This document shows, in pieces, positions 51,776-59,916 of a stretch of DNA of 64,000 nt (position 1 is its first letter; each line of letters opens with the position of its first letter). The stretch comes from a phage. A model generated the notes under the pieces. It worked only from the letters and a program-made list of their open reading frames with translations. It did no database searches and was not told the origin of the DNA. The stretch lies in sequence record PZ674596.1; one strand, 5' to 3'. Position numbers and translations under genes: made by a program.

Positions 51776-52258
51776 ATGAATTTTATCGCTACTGTAAACG
51801 CACCCGCACATGGCAATATCGCTGTAACGTTCTCTGACATTGAAAAACGAGTACTTGGTGCATGGCGCGACAATGAGACGGTAGAACTGTCAGCACAAGA
51901 AAAATGCATTATTGCACGCGACATCATTGGCAATCGTCGTTACTCGAGGGTATTTGAGAAAGCATATGTGGTAAATTCTGGATTCGGAACGTTCGTCTTT
52001 CCGGTGCGCTCCGGGCGATTCTGCCAGTCCAAGCTGATTGAGTTCGCTACGCAGATTTCTTTCTGGATTAAAACTCAATCGTCGTTCAAATTTTCCGACG
52101 ATGAAGCAGTATCGCAGGGGATGCGGATCGCCAACAATGCGATTAAATGCAAAAACATTACGTATACCGCTGGCGTTGATACATGGAAACTGTTTTGCGC
52201 TAACTTTATGCTGAATGTATACGCAAGCAACCGCATCCACATCCTTGATGGCGTGTAA
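51776..52258 (+). CDS. hypothetical protein
   Basis: 160 aa; ATG after AAGGAATTAATC. Confidence 0.5.
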   Translation: MNFIATVNAPAHGNIAVTFSDIEKRVLGAWRDNETVELSAQEKCIIARDIIGNRRYSRVFEKAYVVNSGFGTFVFPVRSGRFCQSKLIEFATQISFWIKTQSSFKFSDDEAVSQGMRIANNAIKCKNITYTAGVDTWKLFCANFMLNVYASNRIHILDGV

Positions 52259-52267
52259 CTGAGAAGA

Positions 52268-52288
52268 GGGCCAGAAACGGCCCTTTAT
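52268..52288 (+). terminator. Rho-independent terminator
   Basis: GGGCC-agaaac-GGCCC followed by TTTAT. Confidence 0.6.
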
Positions 52289-52511
52289 CTATAGCCACCA
52301 GCTGCCGCAGGGAAATTTTCAGAAGCGGCGAGGAACGTATTCATGAGCCGACGGGGGAACGGCCAGGATTTTTTCGGGAAACGGCTGCATTCGCCTTTGT
52401 GTAGAAAAAACATCGGGAAGCTGGTGGAATCCAACCAGCGGTTGTCGGACAGGTGAGCGGGGAAAATTATGATGACTTTCGTCACCTGAGACATCCAGAT
52501 TTCTTTCGTAG

Positions 52512-52557
52512 CATAATCACATACGTGATTAAGTGGTGTGATTAAGTGAAAAATCAC
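52512..52557. promoter_or_regulatory. two adjacent operator-like palindromes (GTGATTA / TAATCAC family)
   Basis: TAATCAC-atac-GTGATTA and GTGATT-aagtgaaa-AATCAC, with direct repeat GTGATTAAGTG x2. Confidence 0.45.
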
Positions 52558-52804
52558 GCGCACATAATACGCGAGCGGATACAGAACAAAACAAAATACC
52601 GATCCGCACCGACAAATAAGCGCGGATCACATAGCAAGACTAAAAGCCAATGATTAACCATACTCTATAGCGCAATATAACGCGTTTTAAGCGCGTTAAT
52701 GTGTTAAGTAATGGGCATGTACTGGTAAGGATATAAAAGCGCGTCTATGGCGTTATTTTGGCGCTTATTTTTATGTTGTTGGAGTGAGTTAAAGACAATA
52801 AAAA

Positions 52805-52871
52805 ACGCGCCATCAATGGCGCGTTATTGTGGAAGTATTGGAAACGAAAAAAGCGCCCATAGTGGGCGCTC
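52805..52871 (-). terminator. tandem hairpin terminators downstream of minus-strand island genes
   Basis: AACGCGCCAT-ca-ATGGCGCGTT and AGCGCCCA-tag-TGGGCGCT, each with A-run on plus strand (T-run on minus); second hairpin recurs near 53347. Confidence 0.55.
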
Positions 52872-52875
52872 GATT

Positions 52876-53106
52876 TTATTTGTGTAAACTGATTTTAAAT
52901 CCCATTTCTACGAACGCTTTTAACATTAAAAATATATCAGCGTCGTTCACGTCTGCTTTTTTTCGCTCCTGGTCGCTCAATAAGTCAATTTTGCGCGTCG
53001 TTTCATCTATAAGCTCGACTGCGCGCCCAGCGTAACCAGCGATCCCAGCGATGCGATTAACATAATATTCATTATGGACGTTAACGCCAGCGATAAGAAC
53101 AAACAT
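52876..53106 (-). CDS. small hypothetical protein
   Basis: 76 aa; RBS AAGGAG 6 nt upstream of ATG. Confidence 0.45.
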   Translation of the reverse strand: MFVLIAGVNVHNEYYVNRIAGIAGYAGRAVELIDETTRKIDLLSDQERKKADVNDADIFLMLKAFVEMGFKISLHK

Positions 53107-53126
53107 GATTAAGCTCCTTAAAAAAA

Positions 53127-53330
53127 TTAAATAGAATTTTGAAGTTTTCCGATTAATGCGCTTAAACGTAAGTATTCACGTTTGCGCTTGCAATCTCGCT
53201 TGCTGTTAAGCAAATCAGAAAACGTAAAATTTAATTGGTCGCGTTGCGCGATCAAATCATCGATTAATTCCAGTTTATAAGCGCGATACTTTGCGCGATA
53301 TTCTGCGCGGATCTTGTCATAGCTGACCAT
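53127..53330 (-). CDS. small basic hypothetical protein
   Basis: 67 aa from ATG 53330 with RBS AAAGGAG; table N-terminal extension covers a hairpin. Confidence 0.4.
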   Translation of the reverse strand: MVSYDKIRAEYRAKYRAYKLELIDDLIAQRDQLNFTFSDLLNSKRDCKRKREYLRLSALIGKLQNSI

Positions 53331-53378
53331 TTTTAAAGCTCCTTTAAAGCGCCCATAGTGGGCGCTTGATTCCATTAA

Positions 53379-54029
53379 TTACGCTTTGAAAGCATCAGCT
53401 AAATAATTGTAGAAATCATTTTTAATGAAGCGATATTGCTGAGTACCAGCTTTTGCGCTCCCAGCTCCTTTGACTTTCTCAACAAGTCCGAGACGTTCGC
53501 AAAGATTGATCAACTGGTTGGCTTGAGTATAGCCAGCGTCCAATTTAATTTCGCACGCTTTTTTAGCTTCATTCATTAAATCGAAAACAGCGCCATTAGT
53601 GAACGTGTCGATCTCGTCGTTAATCATATCGATTAAAGCGAATACACGAGATCCTGACATATCAGCGACGGAATAAACGCATTTACCAGCTTTAATGGAT
53701 TTAACCAGATAAACCAGTTTTTCCAGTGAATAACTATTAGTCATTGCATCACGGAAAAATACTTCTGGCGCTTGTTTGCTTGCTTTAATCGCATAGTAGA
53801 AAACAGAGCATAATTTTTCGTCTTCAACAGCGTTTACAACGTTGTTGATGAAGTAAGCAAGTTTAGTGGTAGCAGCTTGCATATTTGCTTTATCTGCTTT
53901 GGTGTGCGTACCATTTTTATAATGTTCGTTATATGTTTGAGTTGCCAGATCTGCTTTTTCTTTTAATTCATTTGTTACAACACGCGCAGCTTCAACGATG
54001 GATTTTTTAGATAAGATAATATTGGTCAT
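53379..54029 (-). CDS. hypothetical protein
   Basis: 216 aa from ATG 54029 with RBS AGGAA; low-GC coding region. Confidence 0.5.
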   Translation of the reverse strand: MTNIILSKKSIVEAARVVTNELKEKADLATQTYNEHYKNGTHTKADKANMQAATTKLAYFINNVVNAVEDEKLCSVFYYAIKASKQAPEVFFRDAMTNSYSLEKLVYLVKSIKAGKCVYSVADMSGSRVFALIDMINDEIDTFTNGAVFDLMNEAKKACEIKLDAGYTQANQLINLCERLGLVEKVKGAGSAKAGTQQYRFIKNDFYNYLADAFKA

Positions 54030-54322
54030 GGTTTTATTCCTTACAAAAATTAAAATGAATTTATTTTTTACTGTCGTTAGCCAGTTCGCTTTCGACGAGT
54101 TCAATTATCGATACGCAAAAAAAGATTGCAAGTGTTTTTTTTAGTTTTTTGCAGGGACGAAAGTCCTAGAAATAAAAGCGAGATCGTCGAAGGTGTTCCC
54201 TAAATAAATAATTAATTCCGGCTTATAACCTTATATGTTTATACGGAGTAGAATTGGAGGTGTATTTAATAAATGGCATTTAAAAAAATAACCGGACTTA
54301 GCCGGTTATTACCCTTATACAT

Positions 54323-54619
54323 TTATCGGACTGATTCTACAGCCTTACGATTGGTGTCAAATAACGCATCAACGAACTGCACAGAAGAGTTGTTCGATTC
54401 ACATGGTTCATAATTTTCCACTTGTTCACATAGTTGAGCGGTCTTACCAATGTTTATCCCTAATTTTACAGCTGCTGAAAGTTTAAACATGCAAACTGGT
54501 ACATTCTGAGACGTTGAGCATACGTCATTCATCAGCGACTGAATAATTGCGATATCATCCTTTGCATTGGCCGAAATTGAGTAAACTAAAAATAAAGATG
54601 TCAATAGTATCGATTTCAT
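54323..54619 (-). CDS. small secreted Cys-rich protein
   Basis: 98 aa; signal peptide MKSILLTSLFLVYSISANA; six Cys in mature part. Confidence 0.5.
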   Translation of the reverse strand: MKSILLTSLFLVYSISANAKDDIAIIQSLMNDVCSTSQNVPVCMFKLSAAVKLGINIGKTAQLCEQVENYEPCESNNSSVQFVDALFDTNRKAVESVR

Positions 54620-54622
54620 AAC

Positions 54623-55144
54623 TCAAAACGGTAAAATTCGTTCAACCCAATCGAAGAATACAAGTGTTTTTCTGCCGTCTTCTAACTTAAGAGTGACCTG
54701 GCAAGCATCAACGCCTCTTGATATCCCTTCTATTTCACGACCGTCTGCCATGTAGACCCTTATAGATTTGCCGTTTTGGTAAGCCTGACGACATATCTTA
54801 AAAAAGTCACGACGTGATGGCTGATTGTCAACATAGTCTGGATGTATTGTTAGCCTACCTTTGAACTCGCGAGCAATGCCATCGATTACACCTGATTCAA
54901 TTGTGCTAATGCGCTCAAGTGGGAGTCTTATACGATTTTCTTTATCATATGGAAGCGGGCATAAATCTAGCTTATTGCGGGAAGGCATTGTCCCCTGAAC
55001 GTACATGCAAAACACCTGACCGTCTTCAAGCGTGACTCTTACAGGAATGTTGTTTTTCCGCCAGAACATAAGTATGTTTTCAGCATGTTCGTAGTCTCGT
55101 GGCCAGACTTCTGCTGGAATGCCGTAGGTGATGTCTTTAACCAT
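54623..55144 (-). CDS. hypothetical protein with internal tandem repeat of ~80-aa domain (weak Sm/Hfq-like signature)
   Basis: 173 aa; halves share R..N.IPVRVTLEDGQV / GKSIRVYMADGREIEG pattern; ends 3 nt before the secreted-protein gene. Confidence 0.45.
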   Translation of the reverse strand: MVKDITYGIPAEVWPRDYEHAENILMFWRKNNIPVRVTLEDGQVFCMYVQGTMPSRNKLDLCPLPYDKENRIRLPLERISTIESGVIDGIAREFKGRLTIHPDYVDNQPSRRDFFKICRQAYQNGKSIRVYMADGREIEGISRGVDACQVTLKLEDGRKTLVFFDWVERILPF

Positions 55145-55246
55145 AGTCTACCTTTTTAAGTCTTTTTTGGTCATTATATACATCTCTATGATGCGTAGAC
55201 AGACTAACCGTACATTCCAACAAAAATTGATTATGGAACAAGTTTC

Positions 55247-56047
55247 ATGAAGAATGGGGTGAATAAAAAATACTCATTAGCATTGTTAATAGCGGCTTTA
55301 CTATTAACAGGTTGTGATTCTGATGAAGAGCGAGCCATAAATCTGGTCGAGAAGGATATTCGCTCTACACTGCTAGATCCTGATGCTGGTCGGTTCACGA
55401 ATATGCGAGCTATTCAGTTAGGTGAAAATAGCTATTCATATATGGTATGTGGAGAGGTGAATGGCAAAAACGTCTTGAACGCCTATACAGGTGCGACCGC
55501 ATTCAATGCACACATCTTTGATGTTCGTGAACGTAACCCGATTGTATTCGTTGCAATGGATAAAAATACCAACTCGGCAAGAGAACGATTACGTTTTGAA
55601 CGCCAAAATCTAGCATGTAAAGAAAATGGTGTGAAACTTTATCTGGAAAACGAATCTAATATCAGGAAGGAAAAAGAGAAAATAGATGATTTAAAAAAAA
55701 CTCCATTAGGTCAGGCTGTGTTTGATGCTGCAAGTGATTCGACATATGTGAGTAGAGAGTTGGGCGAATCGAGAGGTGTTAGTGAAGTGTATGCAAGAGA
55801 AAATGATAAATATGCTCTTGTTAGCGTCACCAATTATGACACTCCTGACTTTTACAAATTTAGGAAAAAAGATAACGGTGAACTAGAACCTGTTAGAGGA
55901 CTGTCTTACACCGGCTATCCATTCGCGGTTACACTGTGCCATTCTGAACAAACAGATTATGACAAATGCATAACAGAAGAAGAAATCAAGTTGCTTCGAG
56001 ACGAAAAGAATAAGCTGGATGATTTTGTCGTGCCACCAGAAGAATAA
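55247..56047 (+). CDS. lipoprotein of unknown function
   Basis: 266 aa; signal peptide with lipobox LLTGC; only plus-strand gene in the low-GC island. Confidence 0.55.
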   Translation: MKNGVNKKYSLALLIAALLLTGCDSDEERAINLVEKDIRSTLLDPDAGRFTNMRAIQLGENSYSYMVCGEVNGKNVLNAYTGATAFNAHIFDVRERNPIVFVAMDKNTNSARERLRFERQNLACKENGVKLYLENESNIRKEKEKIDDLKKTPLGQAVFDAASDSTYVSRELGESRGVSEVYARENDKYALVSVTNYDTPDFYKFRKKDNGELEPVRGLSYTGYPFAVTLCHSEQTDYDKCITEEEIKLLRDEKNKLDDFVVPPEE

Positions 56048-56106
56048 CATATACAAAATATTTAATTGCTGTTAACATTTAATCGTTCAGACATAGGGAA
56101 AGTCCT

Positions 56107-56144
56107 ATGCCCTCGACAAATCTTTCTGGTATTGTCGAGGGCAT
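56107..56144. terminator. bidirectional hairpin between convergent genes
   Basis: ATGCCCTCGACAA...TTGTCGAGGGCAT inverted repeat. Confidence 0.6.
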
Positions 56145-56169
56145 GTTTCACATTTATAGGTAGATAGCG

Positions 56170-57303
56170 TTAATTGGCGTTTTCGTTCTTCTCTTTTTTG
56201 CTAATTTCATCACATGCAAGGTTCATTATGTCTATGTTTTCTTGTTTTTGAAGGTTGCCGACAATTTTTTGGCGCAATTCATAAAATCGCTCGCGTGGTA
56301 TAGCTTCCTTGTTGCCGCTGATGTGAAGTATTGCGTGACAGCTAGGGCAGACGGCAATCAGATCTGTTTTTGGGTTCACGCTTCGTGCACCTTCGCCTTG
56401 TGAAAGTGGGATGATGTGGTGAGCGTGTAGCAGCGTTTTCGTTTCTTTACCGTCAATTTCCTTGCCGTATATTTCCGACATCGTTCTGCAACATAGTTGA
56501 CACCTGTAGTCTGCGTTTGCCAGAACGTCATTCCTTAACCCGGATACGCGGCTACGATGTTGCGACTGGATTAATCTTGTTTCGCCCTCTATATATTCCT
56601 CAACTTCTTCTTTCTGGAGGTCGTAGCTGATTTCTTCTTGAGTTACGTTGTCTTCTGCTTTGGCTGAGACTGCATGAATCTCTTTCTTATTCAACGAGAA
56701 AGGTGATTTGAGAGCATCAGCACTGTTTTGCCCTCTTGAATGTTGTGATTTTAGAGCAAGATTGTAAATCTCTTTTAATTTGACATTTTTTTTGTTTGTT
56801 CTAAAGAACTTTCTGCTCTCTACTTGTGAGATAATCCCTGATTCTATATATTGAATTAACACACGAAGAAAATGTTCTATAGATTTTTTACTTTTGAATG
56901 AAAAGGAATAGCCGACTTTCTTTCTCAACTCGTTTTCGCTAAAGAACTCTTTCAGATTTTCGTCGTCAGTCAGGTTAATGGTTGCACCTGCCCAGGTTGA
57001 AGCTTCTACAATTTCAGGAATAACCTCTTGGTCGCCAAGCTGATTGTTTATTTCATCCAGCATTTTAAAGACTGTCAATATTGGATACGGATTCGTCACC
57101 AGACCGTTAGAGGATTTCGTTCTAGGCCCATTCTTTTTTATAATGATGGGGTGCTGTTGAGAAGTTTTCTTTAATTGTAAATAATAAAGGTTTATATTAT
57201 TATTCGTTGATATACCTGCCGGTTTTATCAAGGATAATTTTTCATCACATGCAATATCATCTATTATATTTCTTAGGTCACACGTTTTTATAAATTGACG
57301 CAT
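56170..57303 (-). CDS. HNH-nuclease-domain protein with unknown N-terminal domain
   Basis: 377 aa; C-terminal CQLCC...HAHHIIPLS...CPSCH HNH signature; low GC; RBS GGAGGA lies in a CCTCCGAA/TTCGGAGG hairpin. Confidence 0.6.
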   Translation of the reverse strand: MRQFIKTCDLRNIIDDIACDEKLSLIKPAGISTNNNINLYYLQLKKTSQQHPIIIKKNGPRTKSSNGLVTNPYPILTVFKMLDEINNQLGDQEVIPEIVEASTWAGATINLTDDENLKEFFSENELRKKVGYSFSFKSKKSIEHFLRVLIQYIESGIISQVESRKFFRTNKKNVKLKEIYNLALKSQHSRGQNSADALKSPFSLNKKEIHAVSAKAEDNVTQEEISYDLQKEEVEEYIEGETRLIQSQHRSRVSGLRNDVLANADYRCQLCCRTMSEIYGKEIDGKETKTLLHAHHIIPLSQGEGARSVNPKTDLIAVCPSCHAILHISGNKEAIPRERFYELRQKIVGNLQKQENIDIMNLACDEISKKEKNENAN

Positions 57304-57443
57304 ATATCCTCCGAATTTCTTCGGAGGCGGAGCCTACAAATATCGTTCAGCCAATCAAGAAATTTTTTCAGCCGGAGGTGTACATTTCAAAAAATGTGAC
57401 GAATGTCACATGCAGGTGCTCTCATACACCTGCATGTAGACTA

Positions 57444-58010
57444 TTAATCATTCAATAATCTATATTTTCTTTTGATTAAATCTTCACCTTTTTTGGTGAA
57501 CACAAAACCAAATTGCGATTTTTTGTTTAGACGAAGGACTCTGTTATCCAACGCATCGGTTGATGGAATCAATGTTTGATCATCTATCCAATTAAGTAGC
57601 GTAAGAAAGTTCAGCAGCCTCAACGTTGTTGTGCGAAGCTCTTTCGATATATTTTCAATGCTGGCAATTCGTCTTTCTTTTTTCTCAGGTGGTACAGATA
57701 ATTGTTCTTGAGGTTTCGTGGATAGATAATCAATTTCGTTTGCTGCATCGAATGATATGTGTGGCGTAATTTTGCTAAAAAAGCCTTTCGCTGACTCACT
57801 TGATAATAAACCAGACCTATTCATATCGTTTGTTATTCTGTACAGGAGTGGACTGTGTTTCATTTCAGGATAACGTTGATAAAAGTTAAGCAATTCAAAA
57901 GCAGCATTAGCGCCAACAAGAAAATCAGAAGGATCGCTGACTTTCCAGAAAGAATGATTTTTCTTAGCGCCAGTGGTGTCAACAAATGATAATTCTTTTA
58001 ACCAACTCAT
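57444..58010 (-). CDS. hypothetical protein
   Basis: 188 aa from ATG 58010 with RBS AAGGAG; inverted repeat GATGTGCTC-N13-GAGCACATC overlaps the RBS. Confidence 0.45.
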   Translation of the reverse strand: MSWLKELSFVDTTGAKKNHSFWKVSDPSDFLVGANAAFELLNFYQRYPEMKHSPLLYRITNDMNRSGLLSSESAKGFFSKITPHISFDAANEIDYLSTKPQEQLSVPPEKKERRIASIENISKELRTTTLRLLNFLTLLNWIDDQTLIPSTDALDNRVLRLNKKSQFGFVFTKKGEDLIKRKYRLLND

Positions 58011-58075
58011 GATGTGCTCCTTTCTAACAAGTGAGCACATCATAGAATTAGTAGATAGGGGGTAAATATGAAATG

Positions 58076-58354
58076 TTACGGCAACCTGCTCAGTATTTCC
58101 TCTAAATCTTTTTTTGTCATATTGGAGTTTTCATAGATGCGCATGATTTTCTCACGCGTCTTAGCGGAAACCCCAACGGCAGATGTGACTTTGTCAAATT
58201 CAGCCATAGTCATCGTCTCCAGAATGGCATTGATAACTTCAGCCTTAGACATCTTGATTTTTTTCTCTTTGAGTTTTATTTGAAATTTTCCAAGTTTTTC
58301 ATTGGCCTTATCAGACAATGCCACTTGGCAATAAGTTGTTTTTTTTTCGCTCAT
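58076..58354 (-). CDS. small hypothetical protein
   Basis: 92 aa, Lys-rich; starts 2 nt after helicase stop. Confidence 0.4.
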   Translation of the reverse strand: MSEKKTTYCQVALSDKANEKLGKFQIKLKEKKIKMSKAEVINAILETMTMAEFDKVTSAVGVSAKTREKIMRIYENSNMTKKDLEEILSRLP

Positions 58355-58356
58355 AA

Positions 58357-59916
58357 CTAATCTCGTTTCAGAATTCCAAAATCGAATGCGCCATCAACAG
58401 GCAATACACCTTCCGCAAAGCCAGGTGTGGTGTCGATGATGTGTTTTCGCTCATAAGAGTGAGACAACAGGTATTTGTTGCTAGTGTCAATGAAATCAGT
58501 GATAAAACACACGTTTGCCTGATTCTTCTTGGCTCGTAAGCCACGACCGACACGCTGCCTCATTTCAACTTCTGCTTTCCCACCACCAGCCAGAATGACC
58601 GCACCAACGCTTGGCACATCAACACCGACATCCAGAATAGTCGAGCCTATTAAAACATCTATGTCGCCAGACGCTAAACTGTTCAGCTTTGCTTGCCTTG
58701 TCGACTGGTTCGATTCCCCATAAATGAAGTCAACTCTAAGGCCGGACTCTTTCATCATTTCCATCAGGATTTGCCCGTGGCGTTTAAGACGAACCAGAGT
58801 CATACAATTGAGAGAATGTTGCTTATAGAGCAATGCTTCGCGAACAATGGCCTCATTACGTCCCAAATTATACACGATCCCCAACTGATAAGCCTTTTGG
58901 TAGGCAGTGCTCATACCTACTCTAAAATTGAGGTATTTGTTGGCAAGTTCTGCCTTGATTCTGGCCTCGTCCGGCTTGTAGGCAACTTTATGATAAAGGA
59001 AGTATGGTTTTGCCAGAATGCCTCTATCAATCAGGTACTTTTCTGTGACTTTAATTTCAATTCGCCCGGCCACCGCCATCAGGCGCATGTTGGCTTCCGT
59101 CGAATCCTTCATGAACGGCGTGGCTGTAAGCGCCAGACGATAGTCTGCGTTCACACATAATCTGGCGATGTCATAGAAATTTGAGCCTGAAGACTCATGC
59201 GCCTCTTCCAGAATAAGAAGAGAGACACTTGAAAGGAAGCGTTTCACCAACTCCCGACGTTTGAGGTGGTAGCTTTTCTTATCTGGTGTTGCATCGCGTG
59301 GTGGTTCTTCGAGGAAACTTGCAAGAGTTTGAACTGTAGCGACGTTGATATGTCGTGATACCTGGAACTCACCCGAGCCAATGACTCCAACCTTTTGGTC
59401 CTTTAACCACGGTTCGCCATTTTCGGCGCGGTAGTCGATGGATCTCTGGAAGTTTTCGGCCATTTGAAACATCAGAACAGAGCGGGTTGTTAAAAATAAT
59501 GTCATTCGACCGATACGTGCAGCTGCTTTGCAGGCAACGTTAGATTTCCCACCACCAGTAGCGATCTGGGCAATCATCATTCCCTCGCGAACTAGTGTTT
59601 CCACAGCCTGATCCTGATATGCATAATCAGGATTGTATGGGAATGGGTTAACCGCCGGATTTGGCTTTCCAAGCGCCGGGGCTTTGTCTTTGCGGATATG
59701 AACACATTTGATGCCCGCCTTGTTCAAGTTCGCCGCTACAGGCTTGGCAAAGCCAGCAGGGAACGAGTTTTTACTCCAGTTGAACATCGTGCTTGTGCCC
59801 TTCCAGTCGCCAGTCTCGACTTCGTAGCTCAACATTTGCTGCACCAGTTGCTTTACCTTGTCATCTGCGCCAGAAATAAGCGCATTTACTGCGTTAGATA
59901 CAATCCGAACAGTCAT
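58357..59916 (-). CDS. SF2 helicase (UvsW-like, tentative)
   Basis: 519 aa; motif I ATGGGKS, motif II ILEEAHE, motif III TATP, motif VI QRVGRGLR; N-terminal region loosely resembles UvsW N-domain. Confidence 0.65.
   Translation of the reverse strand: MTVRIVSNAVNALISGADDKVKQLVQQMLSYEVETGDWKGTSTMFNWSKNSFPAGFAKPVAANLNKAGIKCVHIRKDKAPALGKPNPAVNPFPYNPDYAYQDQAVETLVREGMMIAQIATGGGKSNVACKAAARIGRMTLFLTTRSVLMFQMAENFQRSIDYRAENGEPWLKDQKVGVIGSGEFQVSRHINVATVQTLASFLEEPPRDATPDKKSYHLKRRELVKRFLSSVSLLILEEAHESSGSNFYDIARLCVNADYRLALTATPFMKDSTEANMRLMAVAGRIEIKVTEKYLIDRGILAKPYFLYHKVAYKPDEARIKAELANKYLNFRVGMSTAYQKAYQLGIVYNLGRNEAIVREALLYKQHSLNCMTLVRLKRHGQILMEMMKESGLRVDFIYGESNQSTRQAKLNSLASGDIDVLIGSTILDVGVDVPSVGAVILAGGGKAEVEMRQRVGRGLRAKKNQANVCFITDFIDTSNKYLLSHSYERKHIIDTTPGFAEGVLPVDGAFDFGILKRD

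Follow-up and report, generated by a model that had tools for sequence, protein, structure and literature searches.

The two adjacent genes on the minus strand at positions 54,323 to 55,144 of the window, the whole 64,000-nucleotide stretch of phage DNA analysed here, are a two-gene transcription unit of an SSU5/pHCM2/pMT1-type phage-plasmid. The first gene codes for a member of the FljA family in a new context and the second for a small, exported-looking protein. Taken as a whole, the locus is best explained, in our judgement with slightly better than even confidence, by an orphan FljA-like RNA-binding repressor combined with an optional periplasmic cassette.

Locus and transcription unit

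The 4.5 kb around the locus share 92-95% DNA identity with E. coli phage-plasmids and with the phages PhiR41_1 and Cyrano. More distant relatives of this region are Salmonella phage SSU5, S. Typhi pHCM2, Klebsiella pKPHS1 and Y. pestis pMT1, and an IMG/VR contig of 111.5 kb (L016) encodes both proteins at 100% amino-acid identity. The close relatives of the window reside in E. coli, a species that possesses fliC.

The earlier note had described the two ORFs as a coupled pair, and this pair is real. The CDS of the 173-aa FljA-like protein (54623-55144, minus strand; PF03614, phrog_1444) ends in a TGA stop codon, which is separated by a 3-nt spacer, GTT (54620-54622, minus strand), from the ATG of the small CDS (54323-54619, minus strand). 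The latter codes for an exported-looking, four-cysteine helical protein of 98 aa (phrog_9536). A GC-containing hairpin, the sole terminator-like site of this region, lies 13 bases past the stop codon of the small ORF (54287-54310, minus strand); its 9-pair stem, AATAACCGG/CCGGTTATT, is followed by a T-run. This intrinsic terminator (54280-54310 in the alignment of the locus parts) has a fold energy of -12.3 kcal/mol (z=-2.0) and is kept in all loci of the junction alignment, being common to those that carry the small gene and those that do not. As it is located after the small ORF, both genes can form one transcription unit. A strong Shine-Dalgarno sequence is absent in front of the small ORF, making it plausible that its translation is coupled to that of the FljA-like gene.

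The upstream intergenic region (55145-55246, minus strand, as read from the sequence) is common to the FljA-like gene and a divergent lipoprotein gene. It contains a Shine-Dalgarno-like AAGGTAG at 55148-55154 and a perfect TATAAT at 55173-55178, which is preceded by a poor -35 sequence. A strict promoter scan of this region called no promoter at the TATAAT, and we regard this hexamer as a candidate promoter of the FljA-like gene.

The FljA-like protein and its distribution

The 173-aa ORF is confidently annotated as a member of a known family, an outcome that the earlier note had named as counting against its reading. Residues 4-170 cover positions 1-170 of the 170-position profile PF03614 (FljA) with E=3.1e-82 and 274.9 bits, the cut-off being 24, and the protein matches phrog_1444 with E=4.9e-99. 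PF03614 is present in all 86 homologous clusters, and many copies of the phage-plasmid gene in GenBank and RefSeq are already labelled 'repressor of phase-1 flagellin'. The identity to canonical chromosomal or plasmid fljA products is 35-41%. An alignment that also took in five more distant sequences (38-42% identical), among which is one annotated as a phase-1 flagellin repressor, revealed 22 invariant columns, including R16-D17-Y18, R112-D113-F114-F115 and D165-W166-V167.

A tblastn search with the conserved FliC N-terminus detected no flagellin-like sequence in the 64-kb window and no flagellin in any of the more than 90 phage-plasmid loci. The only FljA homologues immediately preceded by a flagellin gene were those of three chromosomal fljBA loci from Atlantibacter and Franconibacter (L013-L015), which are 40-41% identical to the protein of the window. 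Judged by this search, the FljA-like gene of the window is an orphan that has no companion flagellin gene.

The gene is present in 831 PLSDB plasmids, among them 341 from Klebsiella, 229 from Escherichia, 92 from Enterobacter and 62 from Yersinia. The corresponding counts for the neighbouring helicase gene are 346, 229, 92 and 62. These almost equal numbers show that the FljA-like gene is near-universal, and thus core, in the enterobacterial SSU5-like phage-plasmids. Its dN/dS ratio of 0.08-0.16, obtained also between two loci with copies resembling the Klebsiella pKPHS1 gene, indicates that it is under purifying selection. To our knowledge, Klebsiella pneumoniae and Y. pestis make no flagellin, and this suggests that repression of fliC is not the only role of the gene. 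Our literature search found no experiment on any phage-plasmid FljA-like protein.

Enterobacterial-type FljA-like genes are also carried by two contigs labelled 'Bacillota bacterium' MAG and 'Candidatus Fimivivens' (L011, L012), and an enterobacterial-type FljA-like protein (P0090) is labelled Gemella morbillorum. The identities of these three are 56-92%, and they are probably mis-binned or contaminating phage-plasmid DNA.

A predicted tandem of Sm/Hfq-like units

An AF2 model of the 173-aa protein was built on 30 family members, and strands and helices were assigned by DSSP. The model has a mean pLDDT of 83.7 and consists of two units joined by a low-confidence linker. The first unit, residues about 19-85 (54890-55090, minus strand; pLDDT blocks of 86-94), is predicted as an N-terminal Sm-like domain with H21-30, E34-39, E44-53, E58-62, E71-75 and E79-84, which corresponds to a complete Sm topology of a helix and five strands. 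The second unit, a predicted C-terminal Hfq-like domain of residues about 109-173 (54626-54820, minus strand), contains H111-124, E127-131, E137-146, E149-153 and E159-163, that is a helix and four strands, and the expected fifth strand falls in the low-confidence C-terminus of the model. The Hfq/Sm-like fold is defined by a helix at the N-terminus and, after it, a strongly bent beta sheet of five strands, and the predicted model agrees with this arrangement.

At the level of family profiles, the Pfam Hfq (PF17209) and LSM (PF01423) models gave 20.0 and 14.1 bits, respectively, and did not reach their gathering scores of 27 and 23.4. Both matches are confined to the C-terminal half; the N-terminal half alone gave no Pfam Sm/Hfq match, and its assignment as an Sm unit is for this reason based on the predicted topology and on its weak profile match to the C-terminal half. 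A sequence-profile search of solved structures returned only a chance match to kinesin (E=0.39), and a literature search found no paper linking FljA to the Sm/Hfq fold. The likeness to Sm/Hfq folds that had been suspected earlier is thus borne out by the predicted fold, which is tandem Sm/Hfq-like, but not by the Pfam gathering scores.

The same protein had also been described as an internal duplication of a unit of about 80 aa. A Smith-Waterman self-alignment of the single sequence was not significant (z=1.9, 107 of 2000 shuffles being as good) and had a different, wrong register. In a profile-profile comparison with hhalign, the N-terminal half matched the C-terminal half with P=0.0087, a score reached by one of 150 column-shuffled controls. 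The register of this alignment is collinear with the predicted secondary structure and pairs IPVRVTLEDGQ with SIRVYMADGRE and LERISTI with VERILPF, which are structurally equivalent strands. Because the two modelled units and the hhalign comparison agree with a duplication and the single-sequence alignment does not, we consider the duplication to be supported at the level of the predicted fold and only marginally at the level of the sequence.

The small protein

The 98-aa protein belongs to phrog_9536 (E=2.5e-30), whose function is unknown. Its family is tiny, with 10 clusters among 5.8 billion proteins and 5 representatives among 1.84 billion. The N-terminus, MKSILLTSLFLVYSISANA followed by KDD, resembles a Sec-type signal, as had been proposed before, and the protein accordingly looks exported. 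Read from the sequence, the signal has n-, h- and c-regions, MK-SILLTSLFLVYSIS-ANA with cleavage before K, a single positive residue, a hydrophobic core with a Kyte-Doolittle 11-residue mean of 2.1, and an A-x-A cleavage motif; a lipobox is absent. The predicted signal peptide comprises residues 1-19 (54563-54619, minus strand) and the mature part residues 20-98 (54326-54562). A signal-peptide-like N-terminus is conserved in three types of the small protein that are otherwise about 20-33% identical.

Instead of the six cysteines claimed in the earlier note, the protein has four, C34, C43, C64 and C73. Of these, the first three are invariant in the family, and the spacing of 9/21/9-13 is the same across the three divergent types. 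An AF2 model of moderate confidence (pLDDT 66.8) has three helices, and a Foldseek search with this model against the PDB yielded no structural neighbour (best E=1.8).

The dN/dS ratio of the small ORF is 0.08-0.28 wherever dS is not saturated, and the ORF is therefore a real, constrained gene. Between types, the small proteins are about 20-50% identical as compared to about 77% for the FljA-like protein, and the small protein thus diverges faster than its neighbour.

Most type-1 copies have a methionine right after the predicted cleavage site (A-x-A followed by MDYKP), for example at 2501-2809 of locus L003 and 2456-2764 of locus L005. Several annotations start the type-1 gene at this methionine or omit the gene. 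An internal start at this position would give a cytoplasmic form of the type-1 protein. The allele of the window has a lysine after the cleavage site, and the option of an internal start is therefore absent.

The small gene as a cassette

Every copy of the small gene that could be placed lies directly 3' of a PF03614 gene. Type 1 (98/102 aa), which occurs in the window, in pHCM2 and in pKPHS1, is found on 246 plasmids in total, and its gap to the FljA-like gene is 3 nt in nearly all loci examined, with one locus having 9 nt. Type 2 (99 aa) has a 9-nt gap and is found on 151 plasmids, mostly from Klebsiella. At about 20% identity, types 1 and 2 are distantly homologous (hhalign probability 81-92%), and their alignment matches all four cysteines. 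Type 3, represented by P0099, is 33% identical to the small protein of the window and is located 17 nt behind its FljA-like gene; the product of the latter (PF03614) is 40% identical to that of the window, and the adjacency has thus been kept despite this divergence. The nearly constant 3-nt spacing, the adjacency kept at 40% and 33% identity of the two proteins and the dN/dS ratio of the small ORF show that the pairing of the two genes is more than chance.

The distances between the stop codon of the FljA-like gene and the gene that follows fall into two classes, of about 295-325 nt and about 593-641 nt, and an alignment of the junctions revealed a precise difference of 300 nt between occupied and empty loci. 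In the window, this presence/absence cassette comprises the stop codon of the FljA-like gene, the 3 nt of the spacer and 98 sense codons (54326-54625, minus strand). Empty junctions read ...CCATTT TAA ATCTATAAGGG and occupied junctions ...CCGTTT TGA GTT ATG...CGA TAA ATGTATAAGGG, each continuing into the terminator. The small ORF is absent in 60 of the 98 loci examined, three of these 60 being the chromosomal fljBA loci, and about half of the related plasmids have the FljA-like gene alone. Empty forms include phage SSU5, Y. pestis pMT1 and all Yersinia and Enterobacter plasmids. Elements with an FljA-like gene 95-97% identical to that of the window (L017-L025) are empty, and one locus with an FljA-like gene only 75% identical (L075) has a small ORF identical to that of the window, which indicates that the cassette moves by recombination. 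One type-2 copy is shortened to 59 aa beside an intact FljA-like gene. These comparisons indicate that the small gene is an optional, allelically diverse cassette on the transcript of the regulator.

Neighbourhood

The FljA-like gene sits between two variable envelope-protein slots. On its upstream side, the divergent gene at 55247-56047 (plus strand) codes for a 266-aa lipoprotein (lipobox LLLTGC, phrog_20234). At the same position, SSU5, pMT1 and pHCM2 have a gene for a 140-aa lipoprotein on the same strand and locus L097 has a divergent one for a 145-aa lipoprotein. Homology of the 266-aa lipoprotein to these two was rejected, since only the lipobox regions align. The constant presence of unrelated flanking lipoproteins of 140, 145 or 266 aa suggests a variable envelope-protein neighbourhood built on a conserved regulator.

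Further upstream, an insertion separates the FljA region from the conserved genes for a 92-aa protein and the helicase. It comprises a 377-aa HNH endonuclease (56170-57303, minus strand; Pfam HNH E=3e-6), for which PADLOC also gave a weak match to a type IV methyl-directed restriction enzyme (E=3e-5), and a 199-aa ORF without a family match (57444-58043, minus strand). This small insertion may serve defence or homing. In PLSDB, a single plasmid, NZ_CP027369.1, matches the 4.5-kb query with a coverage of at least 80%.

On the other side, the terminator and the phrog_1513 gene are separated by an intergenic region (54105-54286, minus strand) that is well conserved among the elements of E. coli, Klebsiella and Yersinia. 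A promoter-like TTGCAA-16-GATAAT at 54131-54104 would give a leader of some tens of nucleotides, and the region is possibly a regulatory leader. The phrog_1513 ORF is listed with 241 aa and a TTG start (53379-54104, minus strand). Its most likely start is the ATG at about 54029, since the matches to the phrog_1513 profile and to the 216-aa proteins of relatives begin at residue 26 (MTNIILSKK...). Two GC-rich hairpins at 52785-52880, each with a U-run on the minus strand (fold z=-5 to -6), are most simply tandem or bidirectional terminators between convergent genes. They also explain the sub-threshold Rfam matches to the sRNAs Hrs1, suhB and isrK at 52790-52874, which were rejected.

Discussion

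Canonical FljA acts post-transcriptionally (PMC2652032, citing Bonifield & Hughes 2003, Yamamoto & Kutsukake 2006). In S. Typhi with pBSSB1, fliC mRNA is present and flagellin is absent unless fljA is deleted, and pBSSB1 renders E. coli non-motile (PMC2652032). We propose that the FljA-like protein of the phage-plasmid would, like canonical FljA, bind to an mRNA leader and thereby block translation, and that it may do so as an oligomer mimicking an Hfq ring; its RNA binding, oligomeric state and target are all features that we infer. As the gene is intact and under purifying selection in hosts that lack flagellin, the protein is probably directed mainly at a transcript of the element or at a host mRNA that is generally conserved. 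Where the host is flagellated, as in E. coli, it may also act on fliC mRNA. A search for fliC-leader-like sequences in the window gave only chance-level matches of 9-12 nt, the best being a 12-mer with E=0.32, a result that has no bearing on a target in the host, and no candidate target was identified on the element.

The precursor of the small protein would be exported, and its mature part of about 79 aa would fold into a three-helix unit, presumably with the two disulfides C34-C43 and C64-C73. It might then act in the periplasm as an accessory envelope factor expressed by the lysogen. That this factor has a superinfection-exclusion-type role is a guess. We further propose that the small gene rides on the transcript of the FljA-like gene and that its product would be no molecular partner of the FljA-like protein.

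One might go further and speculate that the FljA family as a whole consists of tandem-Hfq-like, sequence-specific translational repressors, of which the orphan member would be a flagella-independent core regulator of the SSU5-type life cycle, for example of plasmid maintenance or of the choice between lysis and lysogeny. Canonical fljA would in that case represent an offshoot that was recruited for flagellar phase variation, and the adjoining slot a diversifying hotspot of periplasmic or lipoprotein exclusion factors. We regard this combination, taken jointly, as tentative and rather unlikely.

Among the alternatives to an orphan repressor with an optional cassette, the one that survives best is pure lysogenic conversion, in which the FljA-like protein binds the leader of the host fliC mRNA and stops flagellin synthesis. 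Lysogens would be less flagellated and could, for example, escape flagellotropic phages or immune recognition or save energy, and copies in non-flagellate hosts would be carried by descent. The full-length membership in PF03614, the fliC repression exerted post-transcriptionally by the pBSSB1 protein and the loss of motility in E. coli (PMC2652032), as well as the many database entries naming a repressor of phase-1 flagellin, are all in agreement with such a function. However, a companion flagellin gene is absent, the identity to proven FljA proteins is only 35-41%, and 341 Klebsiella and 62 Yersinia plasmids have kept the gene intact, in numbers that match those of the core helicase. A dN/dS ratio of about 0.1 would also not be expected for a gene without a target, and we therefore think that fliC repression as the sole function is possible, though somewhat improbable.

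Alternatively, the small ORF could be the functional output of the unit, with the FljA-like protein controlling the translation of the cassette or of the flanking lipoprotein in cis, so that the unit would be a self-contained module of a regulator and an envelope protein. The position of the cassette 3 nt past the stop codon of the regulator and its lack of a good Shine-Dalgarno sequence would fit such a control, as would the envelope-targeted lipoprotein genes of unrelated families that are always found on the other side of the FljA-like gene. However, conservation of the FljA-like gene extends to loci that lack the cassette, a conserved RNA element was not detected in the junction between the FljA-like gene and the small ORF, and an Rfam scan of 52000-58500 gave no match above the gathering scores. 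We consider control in cis to be distinctly unlikely.

The earlier proposal of a cytoplasmic and periplasmic pair of an effector and its immunity protein, or of a toxin and its inhibitor, possibly forming a phage-exclusion module with one member neutralising its partner, could draw on the tight 3-nt coupling, the conserved adjacency and the faster divergence of the small protein, but it is largely refuted by the presence/absence pattern and seems to us scarcely credible: the FljA-like gene, on 831 plasmids compared with 246 for type 1 and 151 for type 2 of the small gene, lacks the obligate co-occurrence of such pairs and stands alone in roughly half of the plasmids and in the functional phage SSU5, an intact FljA-like gene is found beside the copy shortened to 59 aa, the larger protein is a member of an established regulator family, its predicted compartment differs from that of the small protein, and neither protein has a toxin, effector or defence domain in Pfam, PHROGs, NCBIfam or PADLOC, the last two giving no match at all for either protein.

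SSU5/pHCM2/pMT1-like phage-plasmids, the regulation of which is almost unstudied, are frequently found in clinical E. coli, Klebsiella, Salmonella Typhi and Yersinia pestis. If our reading of the locus is true, a flagellin-independent core homologue of FljA, predicted to have a double Hfq-like fold, would offer a concrete, testable candidate for an RNA-binding regulator of phage-plasmids, and the double fold would provide a structural rationale for the recognition of fliC mRNA by canonical FljA. If the FljA-like protein merely represses fliC, it would be the product of a routine lysogenic-conversion gene. The small gene offers a clean natural presence/absence polymorphism, which allows for an easy comparison of phenotypes between otherwise near-identical elements.

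The closest known system is FljA itself, encoded in the Salmonella fljBA operon and, as fljA-z66, on the linear plasmid pBSSB1. The protein of the window belongs to the same family over its full length, is of similar size (173 aa as compared to about 176-179 aa) and presumably shares the mode of action, that is post-transcriptional repression through binding to an mRNA leader (PMC2652032). Whereas canonical fljA lies downstream of a flagellin gene and usually under phase-variable control, the gene of the window has no flagellin gene upstream and no invertible promoter or recombinase nearby. It is, unlike canonical fljA, part of the core of a phage-plasmid lineage that is also found in Klebsiella and Y. 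pestis, and the periplasmic cassette that often lies 3' of the phage-plasmid genes is missing from the canonical loci. Hfq and other Sm-like chaperones have one Sm unit per chain, whereas two units are predicted for the protein of the window, and its sequence identity to Hfq is 15-21%. Hfq is also a general chaperone, whereas canonical FljA acts on a specific mRNA.

For the small protein, one might think of T4 Spackle (Sp), which we take to be a superinfection-exclusion factor expressed from the resident phage, with a precursor of about 97 aa, a cleavable signal peptide and an all-helical mature part with a disulfide. There is no match between the two in sequence or, in the Foldseek search of the PDB, in structure, and the likeness is one of analogy only. 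In its genetic behaviour, the cassette resembles phage 'morons', as it is precisely present or absent within a conserved transcription unit and has alternative alleles in the same slot. Unlike morons, it has no promoter or terminator of its own and uses those of the FljA-like gene, to which its translation is probably coupled.
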